A stretch of DNA of 64,000 bases from a bacterium (GTDB lineage Bacteria; Zixibacteria; MSB-5A5; CAIYYT01): NCBI GenBank assembly GCA_016708315.1, contig JADJGC010000008.1:31699-95698 (forward strand). The letters run 5' to 3'. The notes beneath the pieces were generated by a model. It searched no databases and was not told the origin of the DNA. It saw nothing but the letters and a program-made list of their open reading frames with translations. Below, one piece after another: positions 35,144-64,000 of this stretch. Positions within the stretch are counted from its first letter, which is position 1. Each line of letters opens with the position of its first letter. A program made the position numbers and the translations under genes.

Positions 35144-35160
35144 GCGTTTGACGCTGCGGC

Positions 35161-35943
35161 TTACCTGGAACTCAGGCGCTTCCAGGCGACAGAACCGACG
35201 AGAGCGATGCACACAACGATCCAGGTTATCAAGGAGCGCCGTCCTGGCTTTTTGTCCTGCGCGGGCGGTTGAATGACGCTGGCAGGTGCCGCAGCCTTCG
35301 GAATATCCCTTGCCTGGCTTCGGATGGGAACAGGCGCTTCGATCAGCTTGTAACGCGAGTCCGCCGGAACGACTTTGACTTTGGCTCCACCTTTCTCAGA
35401 AAGGATCATCCGCTTTTGCGGCGGCTCGATGCTCCTGGCGGAAGTTGCGAACGTGTTCTCCGGCGGACGATTCGAGAAGGAACGAATGTGGTTTGCGTGA
35501 CCGACATCGTAGCCGCCAGGAAATGCGCCGCCATGATAGCCCGCTGGCCAGGGATTGGTTCTGGCCGACGGGTTCGCAACGCCCATATTACCAGCGCCGC
35601 TTTGTTCGTACGCAATTGAAATGTTCTGGGGCGAGGCGATCACCAGACTGGCCGCGTGAGCGTATTGTCCGTTGAACCCTCGAAACTCGGCTTCCGGTAC
35701 GGTGACGTTTCCGGGAAAGCCAACCAGCAGTGTCTCCAATGCGGGGCTGCCCTGTCCGACCAGAGGCACTTCGAACTGGCCGATCATGCGTTTGGGAACC
35801 AGGACCGACGTGCTGGGATCGCCAATGCGGCTCAAGTAAACCGTGTCGTACGTCTGGTTATCGACGCGGATACGAACCGAGGCGGCCCCACCGCACGGAA
35901 GGGCAGCGAGGATCGCCGTTGCCCAAAGGCAAAGTGCTCTCAT
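35161..35943 (-). CDS. secreted protein with C-terminal membrane anchor
   Basis: Signal peptide MRALCLWATAILAALPCGGAA; C-terminal TM WIVVCIALVGSVAW. Confidence 0.5.
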   Translation of the reverse strand: MRALCLWATAILAALPCGGAASVRIRVDNQTYDTVYLSRIGDPSTSVLVPKRMIGQFEVPLVGQGSPALETLLVGFPGNVTVPEAEFRGFNGQYAHAASLVIASPQNISIAYEQSGAGNMGVANPSARTNPWPAGYHGGAFPGGYDVGHANHIRSFSNRPPENTFATSARSIEPPQKRMILSEKGGAKVKVVPADSRYKLIEAPVPIRSQARDIPKAAAPASVIQPPAQDKKPGRRSLITWIVVCIALVGSVAWKRLSSR

Positions 35944-36048
35944 GTACCATTCTAGTTCACCGGCTTCCATCACCATCCGGTGACATTGATGATGCGAAGA
36001 TGTTTTTCTCCGGGTATTCGGCGCGCGTTGGAGCCTCTGCGAATTAAA

Positions 36049-49047: not shown

Positions 49048-49092
49048 GCCCCAGTATAAGGCCGTCCGTCTCGGCTTTCGCGAAGAGCCGAC

Positions 49093-49359
49093 TTATTGTT
49101 CGGAGACAAATCGCTTGAGCTTCGGGTCGTCCGTGGGATCGCCGGAAAAGACGGTCTCGCCGTCCACACTGACCGTGAAATGTCCCTGGTCGATGTTGAT
49201 GTAGGCCTCCTTGCCGTTGCTGTGCGCGTAATAGTAGTCCACGCCGCATCTCGTATCAGGCCCGTTCTGAGATTTCCAAGCCTTGGCGCGTGTGCCCGTG
49301 AGGACGGCCAAAAGCCCATTGAAATCATAGGTCACGACTTGGCAGGCGGGTTTATTCAT
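49093..49359 (-). CDS. hypothetical protein
   Basis: 88-aa ORF between the trbC remnant/terminator and virB4. Confidence 0.4.
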   Translation of the reverse strand: MNKPACQVVTYDFNGLLAVLTGTRAKAWKSQNGPDTRCGVDYYYAHSNGKEAYINIDQGHFTVSVDGETVFSGDPTDDPKLKRFVSEQ

Positions 49360-49424
49360 GCGCGTTCGTTTGGCGATTAACTCTTAGACCAGCGGCTGCA
49401 ATCGTAATCTCCTCCAACCTTTCG

Positions 49425-49453
49425 ACAACAAAAAAGCCCCGGCTGTCCGGGGC
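49425..49453 (-). terminator. rho-independent terminator downstream of the trbC 3' remnant
   Basis: Minus strand: gccccgg-acag-ccggggc followed by ttttttgttg. Confidence 0.5.
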
Positions 49454-49479
49454 TCTCGCAATTGCATCCTGCCGCGATC

Positions 49480-49615
49480 TCACTGAGCCGCCCATGCGAG
49501 TATGACCTCGATTATTTTTGGCACGAGAAACAGGCAAACCGCGCCACCGAGGTTCTTACCCATCGCTTCCATGTCTCCGTTTTTGAATTTGATGGCGGCG
49601 ACGCCCATAAACAAG
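49480..49615 (-). repeat. direct repeat copy 1: truncated 3' end of trbC/virB2 pilin gene (about 49 codons, upstream stop in frame)
   Basis: Translates to FAATPLFMGVAAIKFKNGDMEAMGKNLGGAVCLFLVPKIIEVILAWAAQ*, 80-95% nt identity to 62649..62787. Confidence 0.7.
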
Positions 49616-49997
49616 GGTGTTGCGGCAAATTACCTGTTTTCTGGCGAAACAGCTCATTTTCTGGATTTCAGCCGCGCACTCCGCCGACCAATATGATGTT
49701 GGGATCCGAGCTGAGAGCGCTGCGAGTCTTACCAGTCGCGAGGAAACGCCGGGCCGGATAGATGGATAGCGCGCGACGTGTAAGAGGGAAACTCCCCGAT
49801 GCGGGGTTGTTGGCCGCAGGAGGCGAGGGTCGGAATCGCCCAGCGAGGGGAGCTGTTCCGAAACCCGCCTAAACCATTCAGCAGCGGTCACTTCTCTAAA
49901 TGCTGCACTGGTAAGGAGATTATCACTTTCCGGTGATTGAATCAAGCGAACAAAGCGTGACGGACACCAACAATTTGCAACAAGAGCGAACACCTTT

Positions 49998-50033
49998 AGT
50001 GCCCGTTTTGATGCCCGTTTCAGTGCCCGTTTT
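49998..50033. repeat. 3 x 12-bp tandem repeat (agtgcccgtttt / gatgcccgtttc / agtgcccgtttt)
   Basis: Read directly in the roughly 540-bp non-coding tract between the repeat copy and the island. Confidence 0.6.
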
Positions 50034-50154
50034 CGGTTCGGCAATCTGGTCTGCCGGCTGCCCGGACAGGACGAAAATCCGAAGGGGAGAATTTTCGGGT
50101 GGAGCGGCCTGGTCCGGGTCCTGTGATAATCTGGCGGCGCGGTGGATCGAAACC

Positions 50155-52281
50155 TCAATCTGCTGCGAGCATTTTTTTGCAGTGCGGGCATTCAGGGATC
50201 CGGGCCAGAAACGGAGCTGAGGTGGGCGGTAACAAAGGCGCGCACATGTCCGCGCCGAACATGTGCACGGGGTCAAACTTCTCTGGCGTGGCAATCGCGG
50301 CCGAATCGTGTGGAATTATAAAAGCATAATCCCGGTGACAATCACCGCATTTTCGACGGCCCCATTCGGAATCACAGTCCCGGCAGGTCATCATGGCGGC
50401 GTCTTCCTGCTGGTCCACGGAAGTTGATTGGCAGCATGGACAAGATTGGAGGACCTGGAGTCGGTCGCGCACATTAACAAGGCGCTCAAAAATCCCGCTT
50501 ACAACCCTGAGGGTTGCTTCTTCTTTTTGCTCCTGTGCGTTAATCTCCTTTTTTTGAAGGTTTACAGCGGCAAGCAAACGACGGTTATCCCGAACACGGT
50601 GCTCCTCCCGCTTAAGATTTTCCCGTGCGGAATAGGTTTGTTCCAATTGGCGCTTTGCTCTGGTAGCCCGCATTTGCGCTTCTGCGATCAAGGAGTCATC
50701 GGGCGGCACGGAAAATAGAAAATCCTGTTCCACCATGTGGATGCCGTGGCGGTGTGACAATTCGTGCCACACGTCTGCCCAGCCGTTCATTGGCACGCGG
50801 ACCGGAAGACTTGGCCAATCCAGTTCAGCGATCACCCAGCGAATGATACGCGCCACCAATTCGGTGGAGTCAATTTTCAGGGGCGATACTTCCACCCAAA
50901 CCATGTTGTCCGAAAACAAGGCCGAGGACCGAAGTCGTTTGAACTTTTCCACCACTGGATCCGACCAGTCAGCGGCAGTAGCACCAGAATCATCCACGCT
51001 CACGATCAACACTGGATGGCTTTGTTTTTTCATTTCGAGGAAAGTCTGGAAGGCAACATCGACCTGTTTTTCAGATTGCGCTCGCCAGCAGGTGTATAAC
51101 CCAACGATATGCAATTGTGGTTTTCCGTGGCATTCCAAAAGAAGTGAGTAATCGTTCTGGACCAGCAGCGTCCACTGGCGGGCCAAGCTTATTCGCTTTC
51201 CGAGCGCAATGGGTTGATTCGTGTTTTCGGTCGGAATCAGTCCGAGTTGCCGGCACGCGCGGATGGTCAGCAACACCGTGAATAGATTCCAATCCGAACA
51301 CGCCCGCCTTCGATTTGCGGCGCGCTCGGCAGGGGTAGGCGGCTTAACCGAGGCCACGCGTTCCCACATGTGCCACAAATGAAAAGCCTGGCGATAGTGG
51401 GCATCACTTTGAAAGACGTTCGTTGAATGCAATGGACTCTCGACCGCGGCGAAGTGCGGCATCTGCTTGAAGAGAAACGTATCGGCCAGTGCCAGCAGGC
51501 GCGCGCGGGCGGTTTCCAGGTCATGAATGAGTTGGGCGAGACGGTCGCGGCTCGGATGGCTTGAAAAAGCCTCACCCCATAAAATGAAAAGCCGGTCTCG
51601 ACGGAAGCGCGTGCCTTGTGCTGCCTCCGAATGTTCACTTGCTTCATCCAGGGCCTGCAAGATTTGCTGTAATTTCTGGAGTCGTGGATGGAGGACGCCC
51701 AAAATCCGTTTGCGGAGAGTAGCTACGGCGCGGTTTTCATAAATGTCCCATTGGTCTCGCCTTGATTCCGCAAGAATGCGCCTGGGGCGAACCCCAAGGA
51801 AGGTCCGGGTTTGCCAATCCTCCGAGTGGGCGGCGAGCGTCGCCACGGCGCGATGGGAGACCCGTCGCGCACGCCCCACTTCCTCCCGAATTTCCTCAAT
51901 CGTCAGATGACCTCGTGGATTGTGGCTGAGCGTTTCCACATGCGGCAGCGCCTGAATCAAAGCCTGCTCATAGTCGCGCAGGTCCAAGTCTGAGGTGATC
52001 GTTGGGTCCAGCGGAACCAAGCGCGGCCAAGGTTGCAGTTTCCCACCCCAAAGCGGCTCGATCCTGGCGGCGAGATTTCGCAAGCTTTGACAAAGCGTTT
52101 CAGTTGGCTCGCTGCCGGAATCGGGGCGCTCCAAATCCCGCTCCGTTCCCGGCCAAACGTGTCCGTTCCGGACAGATTGCCAAAGCCCCAAGAACGGCAA
52201 TGACTCAGGGGTTGAGCAAGACTGTCCCGTAATCCGGTTGCGCCAGAGTGTTTCCATCAATCGATCAGGTTGCGCCCCCAT
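50155..52281 (-). CDS. McrC-like partner of the McrB-like GTPase (candidate nuclease subunit); Cys-rich C-terminus
   Basis: 708 aa, start overlaps upstream McrB-like gene (operon order mcrB-mcrC); C-terminal CPCC...CRDC...CGDC...CPHC zinc-ribbon-like cluster; PD-(D/E)xK motif not confidently identified by eye. Confidence 0.5.
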   Translation of the reverse strand: MGAQPDRLMETLWRNRITGQSCSTPESLPFLGLWQSVRNGHVWPGTERDLERPDSGSEPTETLCQSLRNLAARIEPLWGGKLQPWPRLVPLDPTITSDLDLRDYEQALIQALPHVETLSHNPRGHLTIEEIREEVGRARRVSHRAVATLAAHSEDWQTRTFLGVRPRRILAESRRDQWDIYENRAVATLRKRILGVLHPRLQKLQQILQALDEASEHSEAAQGTRFRRDRLFILWGEAFSSHPSRDRLAQLIHDLETARARLLALADTFLFKQMPHFAAVESPLHSTNVFQSDAHYRQAFHLWHMWERVASVKPPTPAERAANRRRACSDWNLFTVLLTIRACRQLGLIPTENTNQPIALGKRISLARQWTLLVQNDYSLLLECHGKPQLHIVGLYTCWRAQSEKQVDVAFQTFLEMKKQSHPVLIVSVDDSGATAADWSDPVVEKFKRLRSSALFSDNMVWVEVSPLKIDSTELVARIIRWVIAELDWPSLPVRVPMNGWADVWHELSHRHGIHMVEQDFLFSVPPDDSLIAEAQMRATRAKRQLEQTYSARENLKREEHRVRDNRRLLAAVNLQKKEINAQEQKEEATLRVVSGIFERLVNVRDRLQVLQSCPCCQSTSVDQQEDAAMMTCRDCDSEWGRRKCGDCHRDYAFIIPHDSAAIATPEKFDPVHMFGADMCAPLLPPTSAPFLARIPECPHCKKMLAAD

Positions 52282-54646
52282 TCAAGCGTTTGATTTCCCG
52301 TTCCAGCAACTCGTAACATTTTACCGGTTGGTTAGGCTTATCAAAATTATCCCATTCCTGGATCAAATGGGTTTGGAACTCTTCGAGTTGTTTCGCCCCG
52401 AGATCAAACCTGCCGCGCAGCTTGCGAAGCAATTTGGTCGCAAGGATATGATCTGTGGCTTCACCCAGAGTGCCGCCGGCTTCAATAATAACCGGCACAA
52501 ACCGATTCATCTGGCTTTCGAGCCGATTGCCCCAGCCTAAACCCAGTTTGGCGAGCTGATGAGTGAGTGACTTATCCAAAAAGTTCTTGGCTCGGATAGC
52601 GGCATCCTTATGTGTGTTTACCGCCCGATTAAAGGCTCCATCGATTGCGTCCTGTGTGATCGGGACCGGCGAGTTAAGCGGTCTGGGCACGAAGGCCTCG
52701 GGGTGTCTCGGAAACTCCATCACATGGGAGCGGTCATAGGTTTTGTCGGCGAAATCCTTGGTGGTTTCGTCATGATTGGCCGTGCCGATGAACCAGACGT
52801 TGCGCGGAATGCGCAACCAGCGGGCTTCCTCGAGCAGCTGCGGAGCACCATCAATCCTGGACGTCAGCAGACTGACACGCTGCTTCTCCGGGATTTGTTC
52901 GAGTGCCGACAGGAAATCCGCAAAGTAGTGCTCCGGATGCGATAGATTCATTTCGTCCAAGACAATGAAAAACGGAACGTTCCGGTAGTGAGGCTGTTGG
53001 GCACGATACAGAGCCTGGAGAAACTCCGACTCATAATAACGTTTCTCGAATGCGTTGTAATAGCCCAACAAGTCGTTCCGGTCGCGCCAGCCAGATTGGA
53101 CTTCGACGATAGCCGAGGTGGCGCCGATGGCCCGGGCAAATTCGCGGGGGAGGCTAGTTTTACCAGTGCCGCTGATGCCTTGGAGCAAATGAAGCCGACT
53201 GGTGGCCAGACCGGCAAGAAATGCGCGCACGTCCTTGTCCCGGTAATAAAGTTTTTTCTCGCCTATCCGATTCCGAATCTCGTCCACCAAGTCTTTGAGC
53301 GGCGGCAGTTTCTCGAGCACCCTTGCCGGGGGTGTTTGAAGAGTCGCATCGCCATCCATCTCGATAAGGCTAGGGAAAACGCATTGAGCCTTCGACTTGT
53401 CAACTAGTTCCCCAAGCTCGCGGCGCAAATCCTCGACACAGGAACGTAGGGCGCGTTCGCGGCTATCCCAAGCTGCTTTCTGGTCTCTCAAATTTTGCAT
53501 TTCAGCAACGCCGATGGATAATTTGCTCATCTGGGACTGCAACGATTGGTTATCTTGGAGCAACCGTGCCAAATCCGAATGCAGAGTCTCATTCTCGCTT
53601 TCCAAGCCGATGAGTCGGGCAATCTGATCATCTGCAGGTTTACGGGCCAGTTCCGCCACCAACTTTCCGTGCCGCTCCTGCAACGTGGTCAGTTCAGACA
53701 GCAATTCTTCCCGTGTTTTTCCGGCGGCAACGCGTTCGGTTTCCTCGTAGCGGCTAATCTGCTCGGCAAGCTGTTTGCACCGGGCCAAAGCACTCTGCAA
53801 ACGGCTTTCCCGATCGGTAACCGCTTCCCGGACTTTTTCCTCAATTCTTGAGACCCAGTTGGTCTTAAGTTCTTCCGCCTCCTGCTTGGCCCACTCGGCT
53901 TCACGCTTGGATCGAGCCACTGCCTGTTTTTCCAACTGAAGTTGCTGTCTGCCTTCCTCCACGCCGACCAACTCGCGTTCCCGAATCTGGCGAAGCTCAG
54001 TTTCATATTTCTTTATGCCATCGAGATAACTCTGATGATGCTCGGCAATCTGCTTTGCCAAGGCCTTGGCTTCTTCATCAAGTTTTGCGAGTGCCTGACG
54101 ACGTTGTTGCAAAAATCCAGACTCGGCGTCGATCTCTCGTTCCTTTAGTTTTTCCTCTGACTGGATGATGTCTCTTTCCCGACGGTCCAACCCCGATTTG
54201 CGGTCATCCAATTCGCGCTGGGTCTTGCGCTGTTCATCCTTTTGCTGGCGTAGTTCCTCCTCACGCTTCTGAACCTGTGCGTTATGTTCATGGGCTTCGG
54301 CTTCCCGATTTTTGGCTTGTGCCTCTGCGGCCTCCATGCGGCTTTGGGAACGCTCAAATAGTTGCCGAGCTTCGTGAGCCACTTTCCATAGATTTAGCGG
54401 ATCAATTTCCGACGCGACGGGGGCCAGTGGCGGCATGGGCGGATTGTTGAGATCCTCCTCGGTCAGAAGGTTGGTCGCCTGATTCGAAATTACAGTGATC
54501 TGCGCCACAACTTCCGCAGGAGTGGATGGGCCAGCGGGATTGACAGGTGATGCCGAGGTTCCGGCATTCGCCACCGCCGGCTGCATATTTTGCCGTCTGT
54601 TATTGCGATCTTTTTTGCTCATAGTTTTGAGGCTTTGTCGTTGCAA
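52265..54646 (-). CDS. McrB-like AAA+ GTPase (AAA_5) with about 450-aa N-terminal coiled-coil domain
   Basis: GISGTGKTS Walker A, FFIVLDEMNLSHPE (McrB DEMN Walker B), GTAN...DRS signature; N-terminal half is E/R/K/Q-rich heptad sequence. Confidence 0.8.
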   Translation of the reverse strand: MQRQSLKTMSKKDRNNRRQNMQPAVANAGTSASPVNPAGPSTPAEVVAQITVISNQATNLLTEEDLNNPPMPPLAPVASEIDPLNLWKVAHEARQLFERSQSRMEAAEAQAKNREAEAHEHNAQVQKREEELRQQKDEQRKTQRELDDRKSGLDRRERDIIQSEEKLKEREIDAESGFLQQRRQALAKLDEEAKALAKQIAEHHQSYLDGIKKYETELRQIRERELVGVEEGRQQLQLEKQAVARSKREAEWAKQEAEELKTNWVSRIEEKVREAVTDRESRLQSALARCKQLAEQISRYEETERVAAGKTREELLSELTTLQERHGKLVAELARKPADDQIARLIGLESENETLHSDLARLLQDNQSLQSQMSKLSIGVAEMQNLRDQKAAWDSRERALRSCVEDLRRELGELVDKSKAQCVFPSLIEMDGDATLQTPPARVLEKLPPLKDLVDEIRNRIGEKKLYYRDKDVRAFLAGLATSRLHLLQGISGTGKTSLPREFARAIGATSAIVEVQSGWRDRNDLLGYYNAFEKRYYESEFLQALYRAQQPHYRNVPFFIVLDEMNLSHPEHYFADFLSALEQIPEKQRVSLLTSRIDGAPQLLEEARWLRIPRNVWFIGTANHDETTKDFADKTYDRSHVMEFPRHPEAFVPRPLNSPVPITQDAIDGAFNRAVNTHKDAAIRAKNFLDKSLTHQLAKLGLGWGNRLESQMNRFVPVIIEAGGTLGEATDHILATKLLRKLRGRFDLGAKQLEEFQTHLIQEWDNFDKPNQPVKCYELLEREIKRLNGGAT

Positions 54647-56243
54647 GATTCAGTAGACACCCAGTTGCGTGAATAATCAGCTCCCACATCTCTTCTGCTT
54701 CCGAAATTGAAAAGCGTTTAGGCGAAGGGTTGTGCGAGTCATCATGAGATCCCGCGTTGCCTAGGTCGATTATGCGGGCAAGCTTGCGCAAGAACTCTAC
54801 ATCTTTGGACGCTGCTTTTCTGAGGGGATGGACCGGGTGCAATGATGACGCCAACAAAGTTGCAACCACTGCACTTGGCAATTTGTAAACGTTACCCACA
54901 TCCCGGCATATTCCAATTATGAGGCCTTTGTTTGGCTTTCCGCCCGACTTATCAATCTGAAAAACTCCGGGCAATGGCAGGCGTAATCCAATTGATTGAG
55001 CTATGTGGTCAACGGTTGCCCGGTCAATCGCAACGTCGCCGTTAAGAAGTGCCGGCGCATTACTCAACGATGAAACTCGAGCGATTGACTTCAGCAACGC
55101 TTCAAGCGTCCTTCGACATGATTGCATGACCGAGCCGAGGTCACTCTGAGATTCTCCTTCGGTGGCTCTCGCCAGGGATAAACTTTTGGCCGCTGCCACC
55201 AGGTGCTCAAAAACGGCGGAGGTTGCCTTAATATCGAGGGACAGTCGCGCCACGACCTCGGATTCGGCAATTTTTTGTTGCTGCTCCAACAACTCCTCCA
55301 AGGCCGGAGCATCCTTAATCTGCGCGAATCGCAAAAAATCCCGCTGGGCACCAGCCGCGCCCTCATCGTCTCTAGCTATTCGTTGCAGTTGACGCCACAT
55401 TTTCTCGTCGCACCCAAATCCGAACGGATCACAAATCTGAGGTAGAAATGCGCTCCCTTTGGGCAAGTATCCAAACGTAACCAGCCCGGCTGGCTCGGGC
55501 TGGTCGCTAATCGAAGCGATACGCGCGAGCAATTCAGGTGAATCATCGCCGGCGATTCCCATTATCTCCGATGCATCCAAGCGCATTGATTTTTTCTGTT
55601 CTTCACGACGGCGACACTGCTTTACCGCCCGCAAAATCATGGCGCTGGATGGTTGCACCGGGCTCGCCGGGGCATCGAAGGTCCAAGCAGGAACCTTGCG
55701 TAGCCCCCTTTTTGAATCCAGTGCCAAGTTCAAACGTCCCAGTCCATAGCCTATGGTGGTTTCTTGAAGCTGAAGCTGTTGGCTGAAGTGCGGCCAGAGT
55801 TCGCCGCTCCAGGGGTCTTGGAATACCCAACCGGTGATCAATGTATCTATGATCAATTCTTCTTTTTCAAGGACGTCAAGCCCCTTGGGTGTCGGGCGGA
55901 ATGATTTCTGGTCCACCCAGCCAGAACGGACCAACTCCATGCCGATATTTTCAACCAGGTGAGGATGGAGGTGAAGTTTGGTGGCGATCTCCGCGACCGA
56001 ATATGAATTGCTGCACCACAAACCGAGCACTGCTTTCTGGAGAAGGTTGATGCGTTGGTCTGATGGTGCTGGTGCCACCACCCGCCATGCGGCGCATGGC
56101 CAAACAAGATAGACACGCCCCGTGCGATCATAATCGTGGTGGGCGGCTCGGGGACCGTAATTTAAGACAAGATCCATGGTGTCAGAAAATTGCCCCATGG
56201 CTGCCCCGGCAAAGTTTTTGGAATGCATGGAGGCCGGGGACAT
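54600..56243 (-). CDS. hypothetical island protein (possible wHTH near N-terminus)
   Basis: 547-aa ORF between helicase and McrB-like genes, overlapping both. Confidence 0.5.
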   Translation of the reverse strand: MSPASMHSKNFAGAAMGQFSDTMDLVLNYGPRAAHHDYDRTGRVYLVWPCAAWRVVAPAPSDQRINLLQKAVLGLWCSNSYSVAEIATKLHLHPHLVENIGMELVRSGWVDQKSFRPTPKGLDVLEKEELIIDTLITGWVFQDPWSGELWPHFSQQLQLQETTIGYGLGRLNLALDSKRGLRKVPAWTFDAPASPVQPSSAMILRAVKQCRRREEQKKSMRLDASEIMGIAGDDSPELLARIASISDQPEPAGLVTFGYLPKGSAFLPQICDPFGFGCDEKMWRQLQRIARDDEGAAGAQRDFLRFAQIKDAPALEELLEQQQKIAESEVVARLSLDIKATSAVFEHLVAAAKSLSLARATEGESQSDLGSVMQSCRRTLEALLKSIARVSSLSNAPALLNGDVAIDRATVDHIAQSIGLRLPLPGVFQIDKSGGKPNKGLIIGICRDVGNVYKLPSAVVATLLASSLHPVHPLRKAASKDVEFLRKLARIIDLGNAGSHDDSHNPSPKRFSISEAEEMWELIIHATGCLLNLATTKPQNYEQKRSQ

Positions 56244-57336
56244 ATTGGGAAAATTCGGACGAGGCCATGGCTGAATCTCCGACCGTAATCAATAATCGCT
56301 TTTGGCGACTCATCGCGACACACAGGCGGTTTTCAAGCAATAGATGGCCGAATTTGCGGCGAACACTTTTATCATCGGCGGGTTGAATTCGGTTTGAACG
56401 AGTCAGCGAGAGGATGACAACATCGAATTCCTTGCCTTGAAAGGCATCCACGGTCCCGACGCGAAGACGTTCGCACACTTCGCGTTGAGCGTTGACTGTG
56501 CTGCGCCAGGCATCCGCAATGACCAAATCGTTATCATCCGACAGGGTTGTCAGGTCCACCCGTTGCATTGCGGTCATGATGGCCTTGACCTGCGCGGCAT
56601 AAAAAGAAATGATCCCCACGCTCAACCCGGGAGATTCTTGCAAGATGCGGCGTGTTTCGGCGGCAATCCAATCCGCCTCACAATGCCGAACCCAGCTGTG
56701 GTCGGCGTGTTCCTCTGCACCGTTGTAGATGGGCAGATTCTTCCAAACCGCAAGTTTTCCCTCGTAGCTTCCGCCCAAGCCGTGGGCAAATTGCGGGTTC
56801 AATTCGGCACCATCGGGCGATAGAAACGCCTCACCGTGGTCCTTGTAAAAGGCGTCACTTACAAAAGTGCCCAGCACCGGATGCATCCGGTATTGGGTGT
56901 CCAGCGTGACCCAGCGTTTTATACCGTCTAATTTCTCCAAATCCTTGACGTGGATGAACAGCCGTTCAAACAGGCTCTTACGGATCTGGTCGCGGGTCTC
57001 ATCACGAACAGATTGCTCAAGTTCGCGCTCCACTTCTGGCTCCAAAAGATGGGGCAGTTGCCGGTGATCACCCACCAAAATGATTCGCCGGGCGGCTCGG
57101 CTCAGGGGAATGAGCAAATCAAGGGGATTGGCCCGGGCCGCCTCATCGACAATGACATTCTCAAACTCAAGATCGTCCGAGAGCATTTCCATCATCCGGT
57201 CACTGACCGCCTGCTGACAAGTTGCCGCAAGGACCACCGTGTAATTCTCGACGGTTTTCCGCAACCCGACCGGGTCATTTCGCAGGTCCTGAATCAGTTG
57301 TTCGAGCACCATATCCGGCCCCCTCAGCCGACGCAT
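56182..57336 (-). CDS. Upf1-like SF1 helicase, C-terminal part (motifs II-VI); split from N-terminal part by frameshift
   Basis: IVDEAARANP (motif II), ILVGDHRQLP (III), VDAFQGKEFDVVILSLTRSN (V), CVAMSRQKRLLITVGD (VI). Confidence 0.75.
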   Translation of the reverse strand: MRRLRGPDMVLEQLIQDLRNDPVGLRKTVENYTVVLAATCQQAVSDRMMEMLSDDLEFENVIVDEAARANPLDLLIPLSRAARRIILVGDHRQLPHLLEPEVERELEQSVRDETRDQIRKSLFERLFIHVKDLEKLDGIKRWVTLDTQYRMHPVLGTFVSDAFYKDHGEAFLSPDGAELNPQFAHGLGGSYEGKLAVWKNLPIYNGAEEHADHSWVRHCEADWIAAETRRILQESPGLSVGIISFYAAQVKAIMTAMQRVDLTTLSDDNDLVIADAWRSTVNAQREVCERLRVGTVDAFQGKEFDVVILSLTRSNRIQPADDKSVRRKFGHLLLENRLCVAMSRQKRLLITVGDSAMASSEFSQYVPGLHAFQKLCRGSHGAIF

Positions 57337-59515
57337 TGCGAACGCACTTGTCCAAGGTGGAAATCATCTCATCAAGAACGTTGATGACTTCCGAATTGAC
57401 CAATGGGGTTCGGGAAGGCGGGGTAGATAATTGCAGGGCATCCAACAGCCGATTTTTGACCAATTCCATTGCCGGCAAGAAGTCGGGCGCAGACTCACTA
57501 TCCCAGTCTCTGGCCTTTTCCAAAAGGGCGCGGTCTTCGGCAGTGAGCCAAGAGCCTGATGATAATTGATTGAGAACCCGCCATGCCATCTTCGGCCCGT
57601 CATCGGCGAACGCCTCTTTCTGAATGCGCAGACCACGGACCACCTGGATGGCTGCCTGACACTCGTCGTCCTGACCGGCCACTCCCAGTTTGAGGCGGTC
57701 AGCCACACTGACAATCCGGTCAGACAAATCCGCTGGCAAATGCTCGCCTGCCAACGAACGTAAATCCAACAGCATGCGAGCGGCTTCGGTTTCAGTTCCA
57801 GGAGATTTGACATAGGAGGCATGTCTGATCCGAATTGTTTCCAGCAACTTTCTCAACGGCTTTTTTGGGCTGGCTGCCAAGTCCGCCTCCAAGGCTTCCG
57901 CGATCCGGTTGGTCCAAGCTATCAAGGGCAGACTTTCGGAGTTGTCTCCTCGTCGCCGGCCCACCTTCATCGCCGGAAGGCCGAAAATCTCGGTCATGGC
58001 CGCCGCATTCTCGACCGCATCATGTTGGAAGCTTGTGAGCAACACCTTTTCGAAGTCAGCGTTTTGATCTTTGGCAATTTCAGTAAGGCGCTCGATGATG
58101 GCTGATATGGTGCGGGTCTTGCCGGTGCCGGGTGGCCCTTGAATAACGGCTATATCGGGGGTGTTCAATGCAACCCTGATGGCTTCCACCTGCCGTGGGG
58201 TCGGCGCACCGGAATGAAACCGGGCTTTCGCCGCGCCGGACAACGGTTCGTGCGTCTGCACGCGGCGAACCGGCACTGGCCGGTTTTCAAGCAACAAAGC
58301 CAGTTGTGGAATTGAAGTCTTCCCGCTGGCAATGCGTGAATGCGCCTCGTTTCGGCGTGCCATTCTTTTCAAATCGCCGCGCAAGCTGACATGAATATAA
58401 CCCCGATCTGGTGGCACAACCCCATCTTGGGTATCGGGGCGCAGTCGAATGCTTTGGGTGTCGTTACCAGCCAAAGCGCCACGAAACGCCGGCCGTGATT
58501 CGCGAACCGCTATTTGAAAACTGGGCGTCTCTTCGTCGCCGGCTGGCGTGCTGGTGAGCATATCCGGGACTTCCGCTGATGCCTCCAAATCCTTGTCGGC
58601 GGTGATGCCCTGCCATAGTTGGGAGGGGGTCCATTGGCTATCGGCGGTCAACTGAAAAGACCAGCATCCATCCGGCATTCGATGACAACCATCGTAGCTC
58701 AACCAGCCAAAGCGTTTGGCCTCTTCAACGACACGCCGATGTTCCATCGCCTGGTATTCCAGCCAGACTCCCAAATAACTGCCGGCGGTGCGGACAATCT
58801 GATCGAGTTCCGTTGCCATCCCCTGCCGCATCTTGCCGGCTATGGTCTGATCAACAAATTCAAAGGCCCCTTCGGCAAGAATAACGGGGCGATATTCTTC
58901 CGGTTTGATGGCGGTCTTGGGGCGGGTTAGACGAAATGCCAACCAGCCACCTTCTTTATGCCGTTCGACATCCAGCGCGAATCGGTCACCGAGGATTCGG
59001 AAGGCTTGTTTTTGGCTATGTTGCGAGTCTGGCCGACCAATGATGATTACCCTGGCCAGTCCAGCTGGCGAATTGGGCTGGATGATTAATTTATCGGCGA
59101 GCCAAGCACAGGCGGTTTCGGTTGAGAAACGGCGTGCCTGTTGTCGTCCCATATCGGCCACCAGCTTTTCGTCCACGCCGATTTTTAGCTCAGGAATAGA
59201 AAAGCGTTCCGAGAATTCGTGAATCTGGATGGTCAAAGCGACCAACTGATTGCGGTCAGAGCGCAAACCAACCAACCAACACAACCGGGGAGCATCCTGT
59301 TCAATTGAGCGTTGCAGTTCCCTCCGACTTTTGTGGTCCCTTGCATCAACAACCAATGGTTCGGCTTGGCCCGGAAGAATAAGCGCACACAGGTCGCCAA
59401 CGCGCGTCAGCATCAACTCCCGCCCGTTGGGCGGAATCCGCTCAATTCCGACATCCACCAAGGGGACAACATCAAGCGTCAGAATCTTACCGTGTTGGAG
59501 GTTGGCGATTTCCAT
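57275..59515 (-). CDS. Upf1-like SF1 helicase, N-terminal part (large N-terminal region + Walker A)
   Basis: VIQGPPGTGKTRTISAIIERL; overlaps the C-terminal part by 62 nt in another frame at a C5 run (57319-57323). Confidence 0.75.
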   Translation of the reverse strand: MEIANLQHGKILTLDVVPLVDVGIERIPPNGRELMLTRVGDLCALILPGQAEPLVVDARDHKSRRELQRSIEQDAPRLCWLVGLRSDRNQLVALTIQIHEFSERFSIPELKIGVDEKLVADMGRQQARRFSTETACAWLADKLIIQPNSPAGLARVIIIGRPDSQHSQKQAFRILGDRFALDVERHKEGGWLAFRLTRPKTAIKPEEYRPVILAEGAFEFVDQTIAGKMRQGMATELDQIVRTAGSYLGVWLEYQAMEHRRVVEEAKRFGWLSYDGCHRMPDGCWSFQLTADSQWTPSQLWQGITADKDLEASAEVPDMLTSTPAGDEETPSFQIAVRESRPAFRGALAGNDTQSIRLRPDTQDGVVPPDRGYIHVSLRGDLKRMARRNEAHSRIASGKTSIPQLALLLENRPVPVRRVQTHEPLSGAAKARFHSGAPTPRQVEAIRVALNTPDIAVIQGPPGTGKTRTISAIIERLTEIAKDQNADFEKVLLTSFQHDAVENAAAMTEIFGLPAMKVGRRRGDNSESLPLIAWTNRIAEALEADLAASPKKPLRKLLETIRIRHASYVKSPGTETEAARMLLDLRSLAGEHLPADLSDRIVSVADRLKLGVAGQDDECQAAIQVVRGLRIQKEAFADDGPKMAWRVLNQLSSGSWLTAEDRALLEKARDWDSESAPDFLPAMELVKNRLLDALQLSTPPSRTPLVNSEVINVLDEMISTLDKCVRNASAEGAGYGARTTDSGPAK

Positions 59516-59518
59516 GTG

Positions 59519-60961
59519 TTATGGCATCGGTTTGAAAACGACCGCTCGATGGAGCCTGTCCAGTGGACCAAAGTGCAAATGCCAATGCGGGCTTTGGGAC
59601 GCTATCGGGATTGGTTTTTCGGCGGCGACACCCAGGCTATCAATCGTTTTGTCCTGACCGGTGTGCTTCACCAACAGGAACGATTCCTGAGACAGGTTGC
59701 GCACCCGAATCGAATCAGCCCGGGTGCGAGTGATTTCGACGAGCGGTTGCTCGGTCTGGTCTGATGCATCATCACTGTGAACGTGTCGGCGCAAGATTTG
59801 AACTGATTCTTTAGGTGCCAAAACGATCGTGGCCAAGGAACGACTCTGACTGGTCGAGGTTTTAACGAAGCCGCCTGGTGAAGCTCCGGTGGCAAAAGTA
59901 ATTTCAGGATCCCAAAGATAAACAACCGCCAAGCTTAACTGCGGGCGAGGCTGTCCGCACCACGGGCACTCACGCCTTTGGGGGGCGTAAAATGAAGCCT
60001 GGCAATGCGGACAAGTGATCGTCACGTCGGCCGCCTGACTGAGAGCACTGACCCATTCCCCCAAGCCGGGGCGGGCAAGGCGGTCTTTAAGCCCGTCCTC
60101 GAACATGCGCTTGAAAAGTTTTTTTACCTCCGGGGAAATTACGATGTCTCGGTCAATGCCCCGGGAGGAACGATTTTTCAAATCGGTGGTGTGTTCGATC
60201 CAAGGCATATCACCGCGAAACGCCGCCTCTTCAAGTTCCGGTTCGCCATCGTGGACCAGATTGCCCACGAACGGGTGGACGAGGGTCAGCAATTCAAAGG
60301 CAATCACAGCCAAGGCGAAAGCATCGGTCAAAGTATCCGGCCCCATGTCGCCACGAATCAATTCGGGTGCTCCATATCCAGGGGTAAAAACCCCGGAGGC
60401 GGTAGCATCGCGCTGAACATGTAAATTATCGGCATCAATCAAAAAAGCCCAGGAGTGATTTCCATCGGAGCCAAACAGAATATTCTGCGGTGAGGGATCG
60501 CCGTAAACCAAACCGCGTCCATGCAAGCGGCTGAAGACATCAAAAATGGCCACCAACTTTTGCAACCTTGCCCGCAGTCCCCCAGTGGCCACATACCACG
60601 CGGTCACACTACGACCATCTGCAGGTGGAACCATCATGGCTCGAAGTGATGACATGCCGGCGGCCAATTGCATCAGATAGCCCACATGTGGAGGTCCTAA
60701 TACAGCAATTGGTGAAGCGATGGGCAGTCCAGCCAAGTCCAACCGCTTCACCGCCTGAATGCAACGACGCAGACGCTGCCGCTCACTTTCGCTGACGGAT
60801 CGCAGGAGTTTCACGGCGAGACGGCCTTCCTTGACCTCGAAAACATCCCCTTGACCACCCTGGCCAATCAACTTTGCCAAAGTATAGCGACGGCCTTCGA
60901 GGTCCGTGACCACTTGACCACAGACGGTTGATTGGATGCGGGGTGATGGCATGGCAATCAA
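59519..60961 (-). CDS. Ser/Thr protein kinase with C-terminal zinc ribbon
   Basis: IGQGGQGDVF Gly loop, AVK lysine, LVYGDPSPQNILF catalytic loop, TPGYGAPE; CPHC...CPWC. Confidence 0.8.
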   Translation of the reverse strand: MIAMPSPRIQSTVCGQVVTDLEGRRYTLAKLIGQGGQGDVFEVKEGRLAVKLLRSVSESERQRLRRCIQAVKRLDLAGLPIASPIAVLGPPHVGYLMQLAAGMSSLRAMMVPPADGRSVTAWYVATGGLRARLQKLVAIFDVFSRLHGRGLVYGDPSPQNILFGSDGNHSWAFLIDADNLHVQRDATASGVFTPGYGAPELIRGDMGPDTLTDAFALAVIAFELLTLVHPFVGNLVHDGEPELEEAAFRGDMPWIEHTTDLKNRSSRGIDRDIVISPEVKKLFKRMFEDGLKDRLARPGLGEWVSALSQAADVTITCPHCQASFYAPQRRECPWCGQPRPQLSLAVVYLWDPEITFATGASPGGFVKTSTSQSRSLATIVLAPKESVQILRRHVHSDDASDQTEQPLVEITRTRADSIRVRNLSQESFLLVKHTGQDKTIDSLGVAAEKPIPIASQSPHWHLHFGPLDRLHRAVVFKPMP

Positions 60962-61707
60962 TGACTCAAGATGACGGCAACCGTTTTATCATCGAGATGA
61001 CCTGGCGTTGGCCATTCTCGCAAAGCCCGGCGGAGCGTCGGACCCCTTTCGATACTTGGCTTGCCAGCAATTTCGTTTCGCAACCATTTTATGAACACGT
61101 CCAATTTGTCCGGGCGCAGATCGTCAGCAATTCCGTCGGTCACGAGGACGGCGATCCATGGTTCTTTGGAAAGCGGCAGGCTAACGTGATTCCAGTCGGT
61201 CATCCGGTGGTTCACACCCAGTCCGAGGGTTTCGTTGACAAAATCCCCGGCGGGCCGAGTAGAAAGGCATTGGACCGGTTGTTTTCCCCGTTGGAAAAAG
61301 GCCATGCCGTCGCCCAGCCCCGCATATATTAATCCCGCTTTCGGATGGGCGGCAATTAGATGACAGGTGGTGGCACATTGCTGCGGCGGATGTGGCGCAA
61401 CCGAGAAACGCCATTGCGCTTCAAGCCAGCGACAAACCCATTCCGAGCCGACGTCAGTTGCCTTGGCCCACAACCGAGTGGCTCGAATGGCCGAGGCGCA
61501 TGCGGAGCGCGCTCCGAGTGCGGCAAATGGTTTTGATCCCATGCCGTCCCCGATAGAAATTGCCGCCGCTGGCCCAAACGACCGTCCCCGCCAAACATCC
61601 TCGCAGGGTTTTCCGTTCTTTTTGTGCATAGGGCCACGCACTGATGCCCCAAAAATAATTGGCGCAACAGCGAGCGTAGCACGACCATGCTTAGTAACGG
61701 ATTTCAT
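60958..61707 (-). CDS. PP2C-family Ser/Thr phosphatase
   Basis: CEDVW...SIGDGMG, AGLGDG, VLVTDGIADDL; 4-nt overlap with kinase gene. Confidence 0.8.
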   Translation of the reverse strand: MKSVTKHGRATLAVAPIIFGASVRGPMHKKNGKPCEDVWRGRSFGPAAAISIGDGMGSKPFAALGARSACASAIRATRLWAKATDVGSEWVCRWLEAQWRFSVAPHPPQQCATTCHLIAAHPKAGLIYAGLGDGMAFFQRGKQPVQCLSTRPAGDFVNETLGLGVNHRMTDWNHVSLPLSKEPWIAVLVTDGIADDLRPDKLDVFIKWLRNEIAGKPSIERGPTLRRALREWPTPGHLDDKTVAVILSH

Positions 61708-62365
61708 CTATTTCCAAGGGATCAACCGGGGCAATTTTATCAGGTGTGGCACTCCGACTGCGCACGGTAACGCTCATGGTCACCCACTTGAAAAATTTGT
61801 GAATATCGCGGGCCTGGTGGGCCTGAAACACTTTTGACTCAGGCGCATTGAGGAAACTCTGAAGCATTTGGCCATCGGCGTCCGCACCGATCGCCATGGC
61901 CATACGAGCCGCCTTGGAAGCCCGCGCTGATTCGAGCAACTGTTTCAGGGGCAACTGCCATTCGTCACTCGGCTGCCCGTCTGAAACCAGCACGAGCGTG
62001 GGACGATAAGACCGGGAAGGAACGAGTTTCTTGCCCTCCAACATGACGTGCAGTTGGGTCAGGGTTTGCCCCAACGGGGTGTTGCCCTGAGCAACCAACG
62101 GCTGCCATTTCTTTTTTGCCTCCGCCGCATTCAACAAAGGCAAATGAGCGCGGACATCGCCCCCAAAGGCAATGGCCCCGATTTGGATCATGGCGCGAAC
62201 ATCCGGCTCGGCGGCAAAGGTCGCGAGCATTTCCTCAACGGCCCGATTCAGCGCTTCAATCTTGCCGTTTTCCGCCATGCTCCCGCTGGCGTCGAGGAGA
62301 AGAAAAACAGGGAGAGGGCGGGCTTGATCGACCGTGAACTCCTTGAGTGTGATTTCGTTCTTCAT
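61691..62365 (-). CDS. vWA domain protein (TerY-like)
   Basis: MIDAS LLLDASGSM, LVLVSDGQPSD; start at MKNEITL (ATG 62365). Confidence 0.75.
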   Translation of the reverse strand: MKNEITLKEFTVDQARPLPVFLLLDASGSMAENGKIEALNRAVEEMLATFAAEPDVRAMIQIGAIAFGGDVRAHLPLLNAAEAKKKWQPLVAQGNTPLGQTLTQLHVMLEGKKLVPSRSYRPTLVLVSDGQPSDEWQLPLKQLLESARASKAARMAMAIGADADGQMLQSFLNAPESKVFQAHQARDIHKFFKWVTMSVTVRSRSATPDKIAPVDPLEIDEIRY

Positions 62366-62648
62366 GAACACATGGTAACCAAAACTGTGAGTCAGCCGCA
62401 ACGAGCGAGTCAGCTTGGAAGCGACAGCGGATGTGAAACGCTGTGGAAGTGGGTTCACGGGCTGCGACCGATAGAAAGAGTGTTCCGGCCGCCACGAGCG
62501 GAGCGGGCAGAAAGTGATGAACTACGGGCAAAGCTCGAAGCGTTACCGTCGGCTGACAAAGCGGACGGGGTACCATTCAGCCGACGCATTTATCTCCGCC
62601 GCAGCGGATATTGCGAAGCTTTGTGCCGTGCATCCGTCGCTTCCGGCG

Positions 62649-62787
62649 TTACTGCGCTGCCCAAGCCATGATAACCTCCACGATTTTCGGTACGAGGAAC
62701 AAACAGACAGCGCCGCCGAGGTTCTTGCCCATCGCTTCCATGTCTCCGTTCTTGAATTTGATCGAAGCAATACCCATAAAAATCACT
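62649..62787 (-). repeat. direct repeat copy 2 (intact 3' end of trbC)
   Basis: Aligned by eye to 49480..49615, core about 60 nt about 95% identical. Confidence 0.7.
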
Positions 62788-63029
62788 CCAAGGAGATAGA
62801 AGACGTACAGAGCGTACTTCGCCACGGAACGGAGCGTGGCCGTGAGTCCCGTGCTTTCATTGGCGGCGTCCTGGAAGTCTCCCGTGCCGAGTCCTCCGCC
62901 AATATCCGAAGAGTCGCCCGCCCCGGTGCTCTGGGCCAGGACCAGGCGCGGGCTGCCCAGCAGCGTGAGAACGAACAGGCCCACCATGAGTTTTGCGATC
63001 AGATGTTTCATAACGGTAATCGTTGTCAT
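62649..63029 (-). CDS. TrbC/VirB2-family T4SS pilin
   Basis: Signal peptide + two hydrophobic segments, 126 aa; its 3' end is direct repeat copy 2. Confidence 0.6.
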   Translation of the reverse strand: MTTITVMKHLIAKLMVGLFVLTLLGSPRLVLAQSTGAGDSSDIGGGLGTGDFQDAANESTGLTATLRSVAKYALYVFYLLGVIFMGIASIKFKNGDMEAMGKNLGGAVCLFLVPKIVEVIMAWAAQ

Positions 63030-63120
63030 TTTGTCTCCGGCCCTGTTTGGCTTCGCCGCCAGGCCCGTTTCTCCATTCTAGGTTTCGCCCAGTGGGTCCT
63101 CTACCTGTCGCTCGCTTTTT

Positions 63121-63423
63121 CTATATGTGCCCCTGATCCTGGCCAAAGCGTTCGGGGAAGAATTGGATCAAGATTCGGCACAAGCATCCGAGCGTGCAGT
63201 AACAGGAAAACACGATGAACGCCAGGATGCGGACGGCGGCGCGCAGCTTCGGCGCCTGGGCGATGTCGATGAACTCGGTGATGTAAGGATGCCAGGCGAT
63301 GGCCACGCCGGCCAGAAAGAGCAGGCTTGCGAAAACGCTCAACACGATCGCGTTGATGGATGGAAACGGTCGGGCGAGCCAGTTCATGACGGCAACAAGA
63401 ACGTCTCTCATAGCCTCATCCAC
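63121..63423 (-). CDS. small membrane protein
   Basis: Two or three hydrophobic helices. Confidence 0.4.
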   Translation of the reverse strand: MDEAMRDVLVAVMNWLARPFPSINAIVLSVFASLLFLAGVAIAWHPYITEFIDIAQAPKLRAAVRILAFIVFSCYCTLGCLCRILIQFFPERFGQDQGHI

Positions 63424-63737
63424 TGTTGGGTGGTTGGGTCGTATGCGACCTGGGCGGCAAGATTCGTTGGGTTGATCTGGTAATAATAGTGCCCCTTGGA
63501 CGCGAGTCTGACTTGCAGCTCCAGGACCCGTCCCAACGTGTCGTTCGCCGTCACTGGGAGACCCTCCATATCAGCCAGCGCTTGCATCCGCTGCACGGTT
63601 GCCAATGCGTCGCTCTGGGCAACTGTGCGGGCTTCCTCTCGCATTCCGGAGATTCGCCATGCGCCAACGGCCGCAAGGATGAACACCACGGTCAACACCA
63701 TCACCAATTCGATCAAAGTGAAACCGTCACGTTTCAT
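63408..63737 (-). CDS. prepilin-type pseudopilin
   Basis: MKRDGFTLIELVMVLTVVFILAAV. Confidence 0.7.
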   Translation of the reverse strand: MKRDGFTLIELVMVLTVVFILAAVGAWRISGMREEARTVAQSDALATVQRMQALADMEGLPVTANDTLGRVLELQVRLASKGHYYYQINPTNLAAQVAYDPTTQQWMRL

Positions 63738-64000
63738 TCTGCCTCCTGCGATTGCTGCGCACCGCATGCCACGCCAGACCCGGAGCTCCTGCGATTGCCG
63801 AGGACAATGTCGCTTTCACTGCTGATTTTCCGTCGGTGATGCCCAGCGCCTTGCCAACGGATTTGATCCCGCCCGCCAAAGCGCGTCCAATTGGCGCCGA
63901 CGGAGCATCGACTCCGCCTGATGCGCCGACGGGTGGCGCACCCGCAGCGGCTCCAACTTTACTTGCGCCTCCGGCTGCGCTTCCTGCCGCTCCAGCCCCT

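Follow-up and report, generated by a model that had tools for sequence, protein, structure and literature searches.

The window, a stretch of 64,000 nucleotides (nt) from a Zixibacteria contig (GenBank assembly GCA_016708315.1, contig JADJGC010000008.1), contains on its minus strand, at 50155-62458, a row of seven co-directional genes that form one tightly packed operon and very probably constitute a Type II system of the coiled-coil nuclease tandem (CoCoNuT) class. CoCoNuTs are a recently defined Type IV-restriction-like class predicted to target RNA, for which activity against single-stranded RNA (ssRNA) phages is so far supported by a single preprint. Read from 5' to 3', the operon encodes a VWA protein, a PP2C phosphatase, a Ser/Thr kinase with a zinc ribbon and the proteins CnuH, CnuE, CnuB and CnuC. 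An earlier note, made from the sequence alone, had described seven tightly packed co-directional genes here, and minus-strand open reading frames (ORFs) were found at the coordinates that it gave. Several of these ORFs are over-extended at their starts, and homology supports starts at 62365 for the VWA gene, 56177 for cnuE, 54622 for cnuB and 52257 for cnuC; with these starts, three junctions overlap by 17, 4 and 23 nt and the remaining gaps are 7 nt or less. The GC content of the operon (0.53-0.56) is slightly under that of the remaining window (0.57-0.60).

The first three genes encode a TerY-P triad. The TerY-like VWA protein (61691-62365, minus strand; ∼224 amino acids (aa) from the homology-supported ATG, with the mechanical ORF running to 62458) matches Pfam VWA at 5.6e-11 and VWA_2 at 7e-9, and the residues of a metal ion-dependent adhesion site (MIDAS), DASGS...GNT...SDG, are readable in its translation. 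Its amino acid identity is 86% to the counterpart in L001, the most closely related locus, and 51% to that in a Pseudomonas cichorii locus. The stop of the VWA gene is overlapped for 17 nt by the gene for the PP2C-family Ser/Thr phosphatase (60958-61707, minus strand; 249 aa; Pfam PP2C_2 at 2e-28), the stop of which is in turn overlapped for 4 nt by the gene for the Ser/Thr kinase (59519-60961, minus strand; 480 aa; Pfam Pkinase at 4.4e-14). The kinase ends in a zinc ribbon, TCPHC...CPWC (CxxC...CxxC), and its P. cichorii counterpart is likewise 480 aa long. A MIDAS-bearing VWA protein, a PP2C phosphatase and a kinase with a C-terminal zinc ribbon are therefore present in the order expected of the triad, as the earlier note had read them. 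Of the Pfam families that it had named for checking, VWA, PP2C, Pkinase, AAA_11, AAA_12 and AAA_5 were matched in these and the following genes.

The fourth gene, cnuH (56182-59515, minus strand), encodes a superfamily 1 (SF1) helicase. The prediction of an Upf1-like helicase of ∼1100 aa held as to family, with AAA_11, AAA_12 and UPF1/SMUBP-2 matches, but not as to a single ORF, since an extra G splits the gene into two overlapping ORFs, 57275-59515 (746 aa) and 56182-57336 (384 aa). The extra base causes a +1 frameshift in a G5 homopolymer at 57319-57323 (minus strand), where the window reads GAGGGGGCC against GAGGGGCC in L001 and L002, in which G4 encodes Glu-Gly-Pro. Removal of one G yields a CnuH of 1110 aa, collinear with the single ORFs of 1110-1153 aa in the relatives L001-L004 and with Walker A at residue 460, Walker B at 787 and motif VI at 1066. 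The nucleotide alignment with L001 is 88% identical across 3334 nt and contains exactly one 1-nt gap, at the G-run. The AAA_11 match is divided between the two ORFs, the upstream one holding the N-terminal part with Walker A and the downstream one the remainder, followed by AAA_12 at 9.5e-33. Walker A and Walker B are separated by 327 aa, and AAA_11 model positions 70-183 cover ∼250 residues, which implies from the alignment a large insertion after Walker A, as in Type II systems. The N-terminal 420-480 aa are kept in length and can be aligned among relatives of four phyla. When a profile of residues 1-467 was compared with PDB sequences, SMUBP-2, ZNFX1, SEN1 and UPF1 matched only the helicase-proximal part, before and including Walker A. 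The helicase is matched by the PADLOC model MkoA at 5.7e-68 and also by IGHMBP2-family models.

The fifth gene, cnuE (54600-56177, minus strand), encodes a protein of ∼525 aa consisting of a winged helix-turn-helix (wHTH), a beta-rich linker, a helical region and a single HEPN domain, the wHTH and one HEPN being the composition expected of a Type II CnuE. The mechanical ORF (54600-56243) has no Pfam match; it has 49 close homologues in a family of 1294 cluster representatives, and 15 of the 27 aligned members match PF24409 (wHTH-PRTase_assc). PADLOC MkoB matches the N terminus at 3.4e-9 over model positions 6-202 of 610 only, that is, the wHTH part. This is the 547-aa component that had made the domain set seem possibly undescribed; as CnuE it belongs to an architecture published in 2024. 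In ∼170 sequences of the CnuE family the HEPN His (H500), E381 and the pair H472-P473 are near-invariant, with or without the HEPN Arg. The H-P pair lies ∼28 residues ahead of the HEPN His, outside the textbook HEPN motif, and on this pattern of conservation may mark a family-specific active or binding site. The deposited CnuE protein is 542 aa long, but relatives begin at Met23 of the ORF, which gives 525 aa; the deposited cnuC product (IPH59_08860; the system also includes locus tag IPH59_08870) is 659 aa long, and conservation among homologues favours Met9 of the ORF, which gives 700 aa. Judged from these alignments, the deposited start sites of both genes probably need revision.

CnuB (52265-54622, minus strand; 793-aa ORF at 52265-54646), the gene for which overlaps the cnuE stop by 23 nt, combines a coiled coil with a McrB-like AAA+ GTPase. 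The McrB-type motifs noticed earlier (DEMN Walker B and GTAN..DRS) were located as Walker A GISGTGKT at residue 490, Walker B FIVLDEMN at 560 and GTANHDE...DRS at 622, and Pfam AAA_5 is matched at 1.1e-5. The signature TANHDE (residues 622-627) is a shortened NxD followed by Glu rather than the canonical NxxD, and the P. cichorii homologue has the identical TANHDE. The coiled coil had been put at about 450 aa ahead of the GTPase. A coiled-coil-like stretch is indeed present, but it covers ∼320 aa (residues ∼100-420), residues 1-100 being rich in Pro and Gly. The stretch consists of 38-60% E/K/R/Q with almost no Pro or Gly, and in five segments its heptad a/d hydrophobic periodicity lies above the 99th percentile of shuffles, the call being made by a home-made heptad test and not by COILS or Marcoil. 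The PADLOC candidate model PDC-M26A matches CnuB at 1.4e-51 and aligns across the coiled-coil region. Neither an extra C-terminal helix-turn-helix (HTH) nor a DNA-binding domain was found in CnuB.

The last gene, cnuC (50155-52257, minus strand; ∼700 aa; 708-aa ORF to 52281), encodes a McrC homologue with a zinc ribbon. The ORF itself has no match in Pfam, NCBIfam or PADLOC; the PADLOC run proposed earlier gave matches for CnuB, the helicase and the CnuE N terminus (PDC-M26A, MkoA and MkoB, respectively). Forty-two homologues were collected, and 18 of the 27 aligned members match Pfam DUF2357, the McrC N-terminal domain. The AlphaFold2 (AF2) model is confident (pLDDT 85, pTM 0.81), and its best structural match is McrC. 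A DUF2357-type N-terminal domain and a helical bundle precede an alpha/beta domain (363-523), which is followed by a long helical hairpin (529-612) and a beta-rich zinc-ribbon region (622-656); toward the N terminus the model shows only a few short strands at 13-36 and a beta region at 125-177. The description of a Cys-rich partner in the McrC position was thus borne out, the C-terminal motifs being CPCC at 614, CRDC at 633, CGDC at 645 and CPHC at 698. The conserved D...(D/E)xK of the nuclease is absent from the alpha/beta domain, where E464-V-S466 puts Ser in the place of Lys and no conserved Asp lies upstream. Conserved in its stead is the string E464-x-S466-P467-x-(K/R)469-x-D471-x-x-E474-x-x-x-R478, with E474 unchanged in all 27 sequences; the strong conservation of this cluster without D...(D/E)xK indicates that some function constrains the nuclease-like domain. 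Neither Pfam, across the aligned members, nor the AF2 model gave an Hsp70 or HEAT signal for CnuC.

The seven proteins were compared by tblastn with 14 related loci. The order VWA-PP2C-STK-helicase-CnuE-McrB-McrC (STK, the Ser/Thr kinase) was the same in the Verrucomicrobiota loci L001-L005, and the full seven-gene order was also present in Bacteroidota L008, L009 and L014; Myxococcota L007 has the same order with the PP2C match undetected, Bacteroidota L011 and L012 have only the kinase and the four cnu genes, and Bacillota (Lachnospiraceae) L013 has cnuH-E-B-C on a contig cut upstream. The P. cichorii locus (L015), found via a distant CnuC homologue, has the seven-gene arrangement at 23-51% identity protein by protein, its last five genes encoding 480, 1124, 496, 823 and 603 aa. 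The PP2C gene is kept in position in L001-L005, L008, L009, L014 and L015, and the seven-gene order recurs in four or five phyla. By contrast, the genes flanking the operon in the window recur in none of the 14 related loci. The closest relatives, L001-L004, are Verrucomicrobiota/Limisphaerales metagenome-assembled genomes (MAGs) with CnuB 63-86% identical. DNA homology with L001 (84.7%) spans exactly 62366, at the VWA ATG, to 50153, at the cnuC stop, and the system is accordingly a discrete 12.2-kb cassette with its edges at the start codon of the VWA gene and the stop codon of cnuC. The six genes other than cnuH are intact ORFs collinear with L001, and the ratio of nonsynonymous to synonymous substitution (dN/dS) against L001 is 0.06-0.23 for all seven genes. 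The conserved order, the edges of the homology with L001 and these dN/dS values go far beyond chance and speak for a single functional cassette.

Bell et al. 2024 (PMC11090510) define CoCoNuTs by three features: a GTPase that has the NxD signature and is joined to a coiled coil, a homologue of McrC with a missing or inactive nuclease, and another nuclease in tight association; the NxD signature is usually followed by E or D. The window has the NxD GTPase, the N-terminal coiled coil, the adjacent DUF2357 McrC homologue with an inactivated nuclease and, as the associated nuclease, the HEPN-fold protein encoded two genes upstream of cnuC in a frame overlapping cnuB. With the UPF1-like helicase and the TerY-P triad added to this GTPase/McrC pair, the CoCoNuT-type class suggested by the earlier note is well supported, but its leaning toward Type III is not. 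In Type II, CnuE has one HEPN, and CnuC combines a beta-sandwich of reduced length with an inactivated PD-(D/E)xK fold and a zinc ribbon that bears two or three CPxC; in Type III-A, CnuE has two HEPN domains (RxxxxH and RxH), and CnuC has lost the nuclease fold and the zinc ribbon and gained Hsp70-like and HEAT regions (PMC11090510). Given that the CnuC of the window keeps the zinc ribbon without Hsp70 or HEAT and that its CnuE has one HEPN, the system falls under Type II by these criteria. The locus is therefore very probably a Type II CoCoNuT with its usual TerY-P triad, carried as a movable 12.2-kb cassette in a conjugative-element-like region.

The likeness to published Type II systems extends to the gene order, the NxD coiled-coil GTPase, the insertion in the helicase, the wHTH with a single HEPN, the CnuC build (DUF2357, no canonical PD-(D/E)xK, zinc ribbon with two CPxC), the overlapping cnuE/cnuB frames and residence on a mobile element. 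In the AF2 model the helical hairpin of CnuC sits between the nuclease-like domain and the zinc ribbon, and the N-terminal beta-sandwich is not clearly resolved, which sets this CnuC somewhat apart. The two further differences are the HEPN motif and the frameshifted cnuH; except for these the locus is ordinary for its class. Class, gene order and TerY-P association were already described in 2024, and the locus is no new kind of system. A full-text literature search for the Cnu gene names returned only Bell et al. 2024 and its preprint.

Several observations weigh against the Type II reading. The HEPN motif of the window is GNAGSH where RxxxxH is expected of Type II, and the replacement of Arg by Gly (G-N-x-x-x-H, as in L001-L005) is common to the whole Verrucomicrobiota clade. 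In the sequence as deposited, cnuH is interrupted; the earlier note had noticed neither this frameshift nor the lost HEPN Arg. The SmpB- and RelE-like N-terminal domains of CnuH left no sequence signal in the PDB profile search, and a profile comparison of the N terminus with E. coli SmpB gave a probability of 0.1; for the published systems this similarity was likewise not detectable by sequence (Bell et al. 2024, PMC11090510). The assignment itself combines domain criteria with orthology and synteny to the P. cichorii locus, which serve as a proxy for the placement of CnuB in a tree. Finally, the mechanism of every CoCoNuT is a prediction.

The HEPN motif differs systematically between lineages. 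R-(N/D/T)-x-x-x-H is found in the Bacteroidota, Bacillota, Myxococcota and Pseudomonas relatives, with the Arg kept in L007-L014, and the CnuE of P. cichorii, unlike that of the window, has a canonical RNxxxH in LRNRSSH. Among ∼171 CnuE-family sequences the position is occupied by R in 70 sequences, by G in 40 and by A in 24, fractions that are no census since the list is biased to the query profile. Conservation of the Type II RxxxxH is stated by Bell et al. 2024 (PMC11090510) to hold "in most cases", and because exceptions are thereby permitted, GNAGSH is a documented exception and not a new type, and membership is not excluded by it. The locus thus documents a whole clade that lacks the canonical HEPN Arg but keeps the other invariant residues, and G495, H500, H472 and E381 of CnuE are concrete targets for mutagenesis.

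In the characterized HEPN RNases, including Cas13, Csm6 and RnlA/LsoA, catalysis requires both the Arg and the His. The clade would accordingly have either an altered HEPN active site or a non-catalytic HEPN, and RNA cleavage in it, if any, would by these motifs use a non-canonical site. A stronger form of this reading takes the Gly at the HEPN Arg position and the missing McrC D...(D/E)xK together with the strong purifying selection on the genes. It holds that no recognizable nuclease of the Verrucomicrobiota clade keeps a canonical motif, and that the system either cleaves via a re-wired HEPN site (His/His/Glu) or does not cleave at all, its helicase or GTPase instead driving, for example, the stripping or sequestration of RNA or ribosome complexes, or the predicted RelE-like domain of CnuH being the active part. 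This is put forward as a tentative and rather doubtful proposal.

The alternative that survives best concerns not the identity of the system, which it leaves as Type II, but its present state. The copy in the window could be recently inactivated and decaying, with the extra G real, the helicase no longer one polypeptide and defence lost. The frameshift is, after all, present in the deposited sequence, a second pair of overlapping ORFs, 2.4-3.6 kb downstream, resembles a split VirB4-like ATPase, and neither the HEPN Arg position nor the McrC catalytic motif is canonical. Both of these motif changes are, however, clade-wide and conserved. The indel is the sole one in the 3.3-kb cnuH alignment with L001, no stop codons occur elsewhere, the other six genes are intact, and the indel falls within a homopolymer, where errors of sequencing or assembly are typical. 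Against L001, dN/dS is 0.13 upstream of the shift and 0.08 downstream; given such strong purifying selection on both halves, the lesion is either a homopolymer error or a very recent mutation. If the extra G is real, the +1 frameshift may have left the operon without function; an error in assembly or sequencing is slightly favored over a real mutation. A decaying copy is regarded as possible but less likely than not.

That three independent systems merely adjoin one another, namely a TerY-P module acting by itself, a helicase/effector pair resembling Mokosh type I and a restriction enzyme of the McrBC type, is improbable. PADLOC MkoA/MkoB models do match the helicase (5.7e-68), the kinase (6e-9) and the CnuE N terminus (3.4e-9), and TerY-P-like modules with an OB fold replacing the zinc ribbon are reported to defend alone (PMC11090510, citing Gao et al. 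2020). The order and the tight or overlapping junctions are, however, kept in four or five phyla, although the flanking genes are entirely different. With CnuC devoid of a canonical nuclease motif and CnuB of a DNA-binding domain, the McrBC-like pair would moreover have no recognizable effector of its own. In addition, the phospholipase D (PLD) nuclease part of MkoB is unmatched. Mokosh type I (PDLC03920-03922) shares with the window a UPF1-like (COG1112-type) helicase followed by a wHTH-effector, and the MkoA model has a kinase-like N-terminal region. Its effector is, however, a PLD nuclease and not a HEPN, and it lacks a McrBC-like pair, a coiled-coil GTPase and separate VWA and PP2C proteins. 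Membership in Mokosh type I was rejected, the MkoB match being confined to positions 6-202 of 610 and the C terminus of CnuE having a HEPN fold rather than PLD. The helicase plus wHTH-effector module belongs to a wider cnuHE family (PMC11090510), and the MkoA/MkoB matches reflect that wider family, only the wHTH being common to CnuE and MkoB.

Assignment to Type III(-A) is highly improbable. TerY-P triads accompany Type III-A systems too (PMC11090510), and databases contain CnuE-family members of ∼750 aa that match in two stretches and carry an R-G-H motif; these members, found in the profile search, look like the Type III-A form and are unlike the CnuE of the window, which has 525-547 aa and one HEPN. 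The zinc ribbon and alpha/beta nuclease-like domain of CnuC, the lack of an Hsp70/HEAT signal in its Pfam and AF2 results and a CnuB without the extra C-terminal HTH all speak against it.

Equally hard to credit is a conventional DNA-targeting Type IV (McrBC) restriction of modified DNA with accessory genes, for although McrB-like AAA+ and McrC-like folds are present, the signature is NxD and not NxxD, a coiled coil replaces the modified-base reader domain, and D...(D/E)xK is missing from CnuC, with Ser at the Lys position and no upstream conserved Asp. In comparison with the canonical McrBC of E. coli and T. gammatolerans (PDB 6hz4, 6ut6 and 6ut5), the window thus shares the AAA+ GTPase with McrB-type motifs and a McrC-fold partner but lacks the DNA-reader and a conserved catalytic PD-(D/E)xK; CnuC further adds a zinc ribbon and a helical hairpin, and the operon a helicase, an RNase and a signaling triad.

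For a Type II CoCoNuT such as the locus very probably represents, a working scheme can be set beside the observed anatomy, domains, gene order, selection and boundaries, its steps being drawn from Bell et al. 2024 and from what is established for the protein families. From these two sources, the VWA/PP2C/kinase triad is predicted to act as a phosphorylation switch that senses infection or stress. CnuH, as a UPF1-like 5'-3' RNA/ssDNA helicase, would load on target RNA, possibly at stalled ribosomes or transfer-messenger RNA (tmRNA) via its N-terminal domains. CnuE, recruited via its wHTH and helical region, would supply the HEPN RNase and be brought to the target by the CnuH translocase. Hexamers of CnuB with CnuC would form a GTP-driven McrBC-like motor, in which the inactive nuclease fold and zinc ribbon of CnuC might bind nucleic acid or act as a scaffold, and the coiled coils are presumed to join this motor to CnuH and CnuE. 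The predicted outcome is degradation of phage, and possibly host, RNA, leading to immunity or abortive infection.

Protection has been measured for a related cluster. The Obs locus of Pseudomonas aeruginosa PMM16 (obsA-obsG/cnuC) consists of seven genes described as strongly homologous to Type II CoCoNuTs (10.64898/2026.04.06.716636). It is reported to protect against the ssRNA phages PP7 and LeviOr01 and against the DNA phage MPK7 (10.64898/2026.04.06.716636). The seven-gene cluster is shared with the window, the likeness running through the P. cichorii locus only and not through the Obs sequences. In contrast to Obs, the window system is known here from its genes alone, and by this analogy the Obs result would support a defence role and RNA-phage activity for Type II rather than for the copy in the window.

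The locus adds an example of a CoCoNuT on a conjugative-type element. The cassette sits in a conjugative-element-like region of the source MAG, with a small gene on one side and, on the other, a partial and diverged copy of the 3' end of that gene. The upstream gene (62649-63029, 126 aa, full length) encodes a secreted or membrane protein that is pilin-like by position only. Its 3' end bears one copy (62651-62780, minus strand) of a 130-nt direct repeat of 80% identity, and the other copy (49482-49611, minus strand), within a 44-codon 3' fragment of the same gene (49480-49614), lies ∼540 nt past the cnuC stop. Directly after the truncated copy is an intrinsic-terminator-like hairpin found by a consensus scan (49432-49457, minus strand; 11-bp stem, 7 GC pairs, T-run), and from its sequence features this hairpin likely ends the transcription unit. 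Promoter- and terminator-like sites in the region occur at chance level, and only this hairpin (49457-49432) is individually convincing. The consensus scan found no terminator-like site in 62365-62649, between the 126-aa gene and the VWA start, and the cassette may be read through from the upstream 126-aa gene, using the original terminator of that gene. The spacer at 49615-50154 (∼540 nt) contains no convincing ORF, has no Rfam match and shows no homology to L001; an Rfam scan of 48800-64000 likewise returned no match.

The L001 cassette lies in an unrelated context and is bracketed by a repeat of ∼295 nt that is 84-89% identical (L001 positions 1765-2059 and 14684-14982). In L001 it is the downstream copy that is an intact gene, of 194 aa, and the upstream one that is a 5' gene fragment. 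No such bracketing repeats were found in L002-L005. The two cases, and there are only two, suggest that a circular cassette, bearing part of a diverged homologue of the target gene, was inserted by a single crossover (Campbell-type insertion).

The remainder of the window (1-49000 and 62600-64000) appears as a conjugative or plasmid-like mobile element. It encodes an SNF2-type helicase (4528-7914), a protein with a MzaA-like C-terminal domain (11733-13073), a T2SSE/PilB-type ATPase (15964-17904), a DUF3854 protein (18450-19739), a SbcC/SbcD-like pair (22320-25498), a DinG-like helicase (39409-41424; PADLOC typeIV_DinG at 1e-79), a PolA-like polymerase that includes an exonuclease (42568-45996) and a prepilin bearing an N-methylation motif (63408-63767). 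PADLOC matches on ten other large ORFs of the window were only generic (DinG, LmuB-like SMC, MzaA C terminus and HerA/mad8-like); a second defence system was not recognized in complete form, and no Type I restriction-modification (RM) system, BREX, Druantia III or CARF partner was found in the window.

Downstream of the cassette, a VirB4/TraG-type P-loop ATPase (46506-49047, minus strand) is divided between two overlapping ORFs, 47650-49047 (465 aa, no Pfam match) and 46506-47756 (416 aa, TraG P-loop at 4.5e-26). Joined, these would give ∼846 aa, the normal size of VirB4/TrbE, and a second frameshift in the window may be located near 47750, where there is no obvious homopolymer. This ATPase was considered as a "3'-migrated EccE3-HerA" extension, which is on record for some Type III-A systems. 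That possibility was rejected because the system is Type II with no duplicated VWA, the terminator and the gene fragment intervene, and the relatives are without the ATPase. Three consecutive ORFs of ∼270 aa at 33603-35976 (minus strand), with overlaps of 28 and 52 nt and no Pfam match, may represent either three small genes or a single larger one disrupted by frameshifts.

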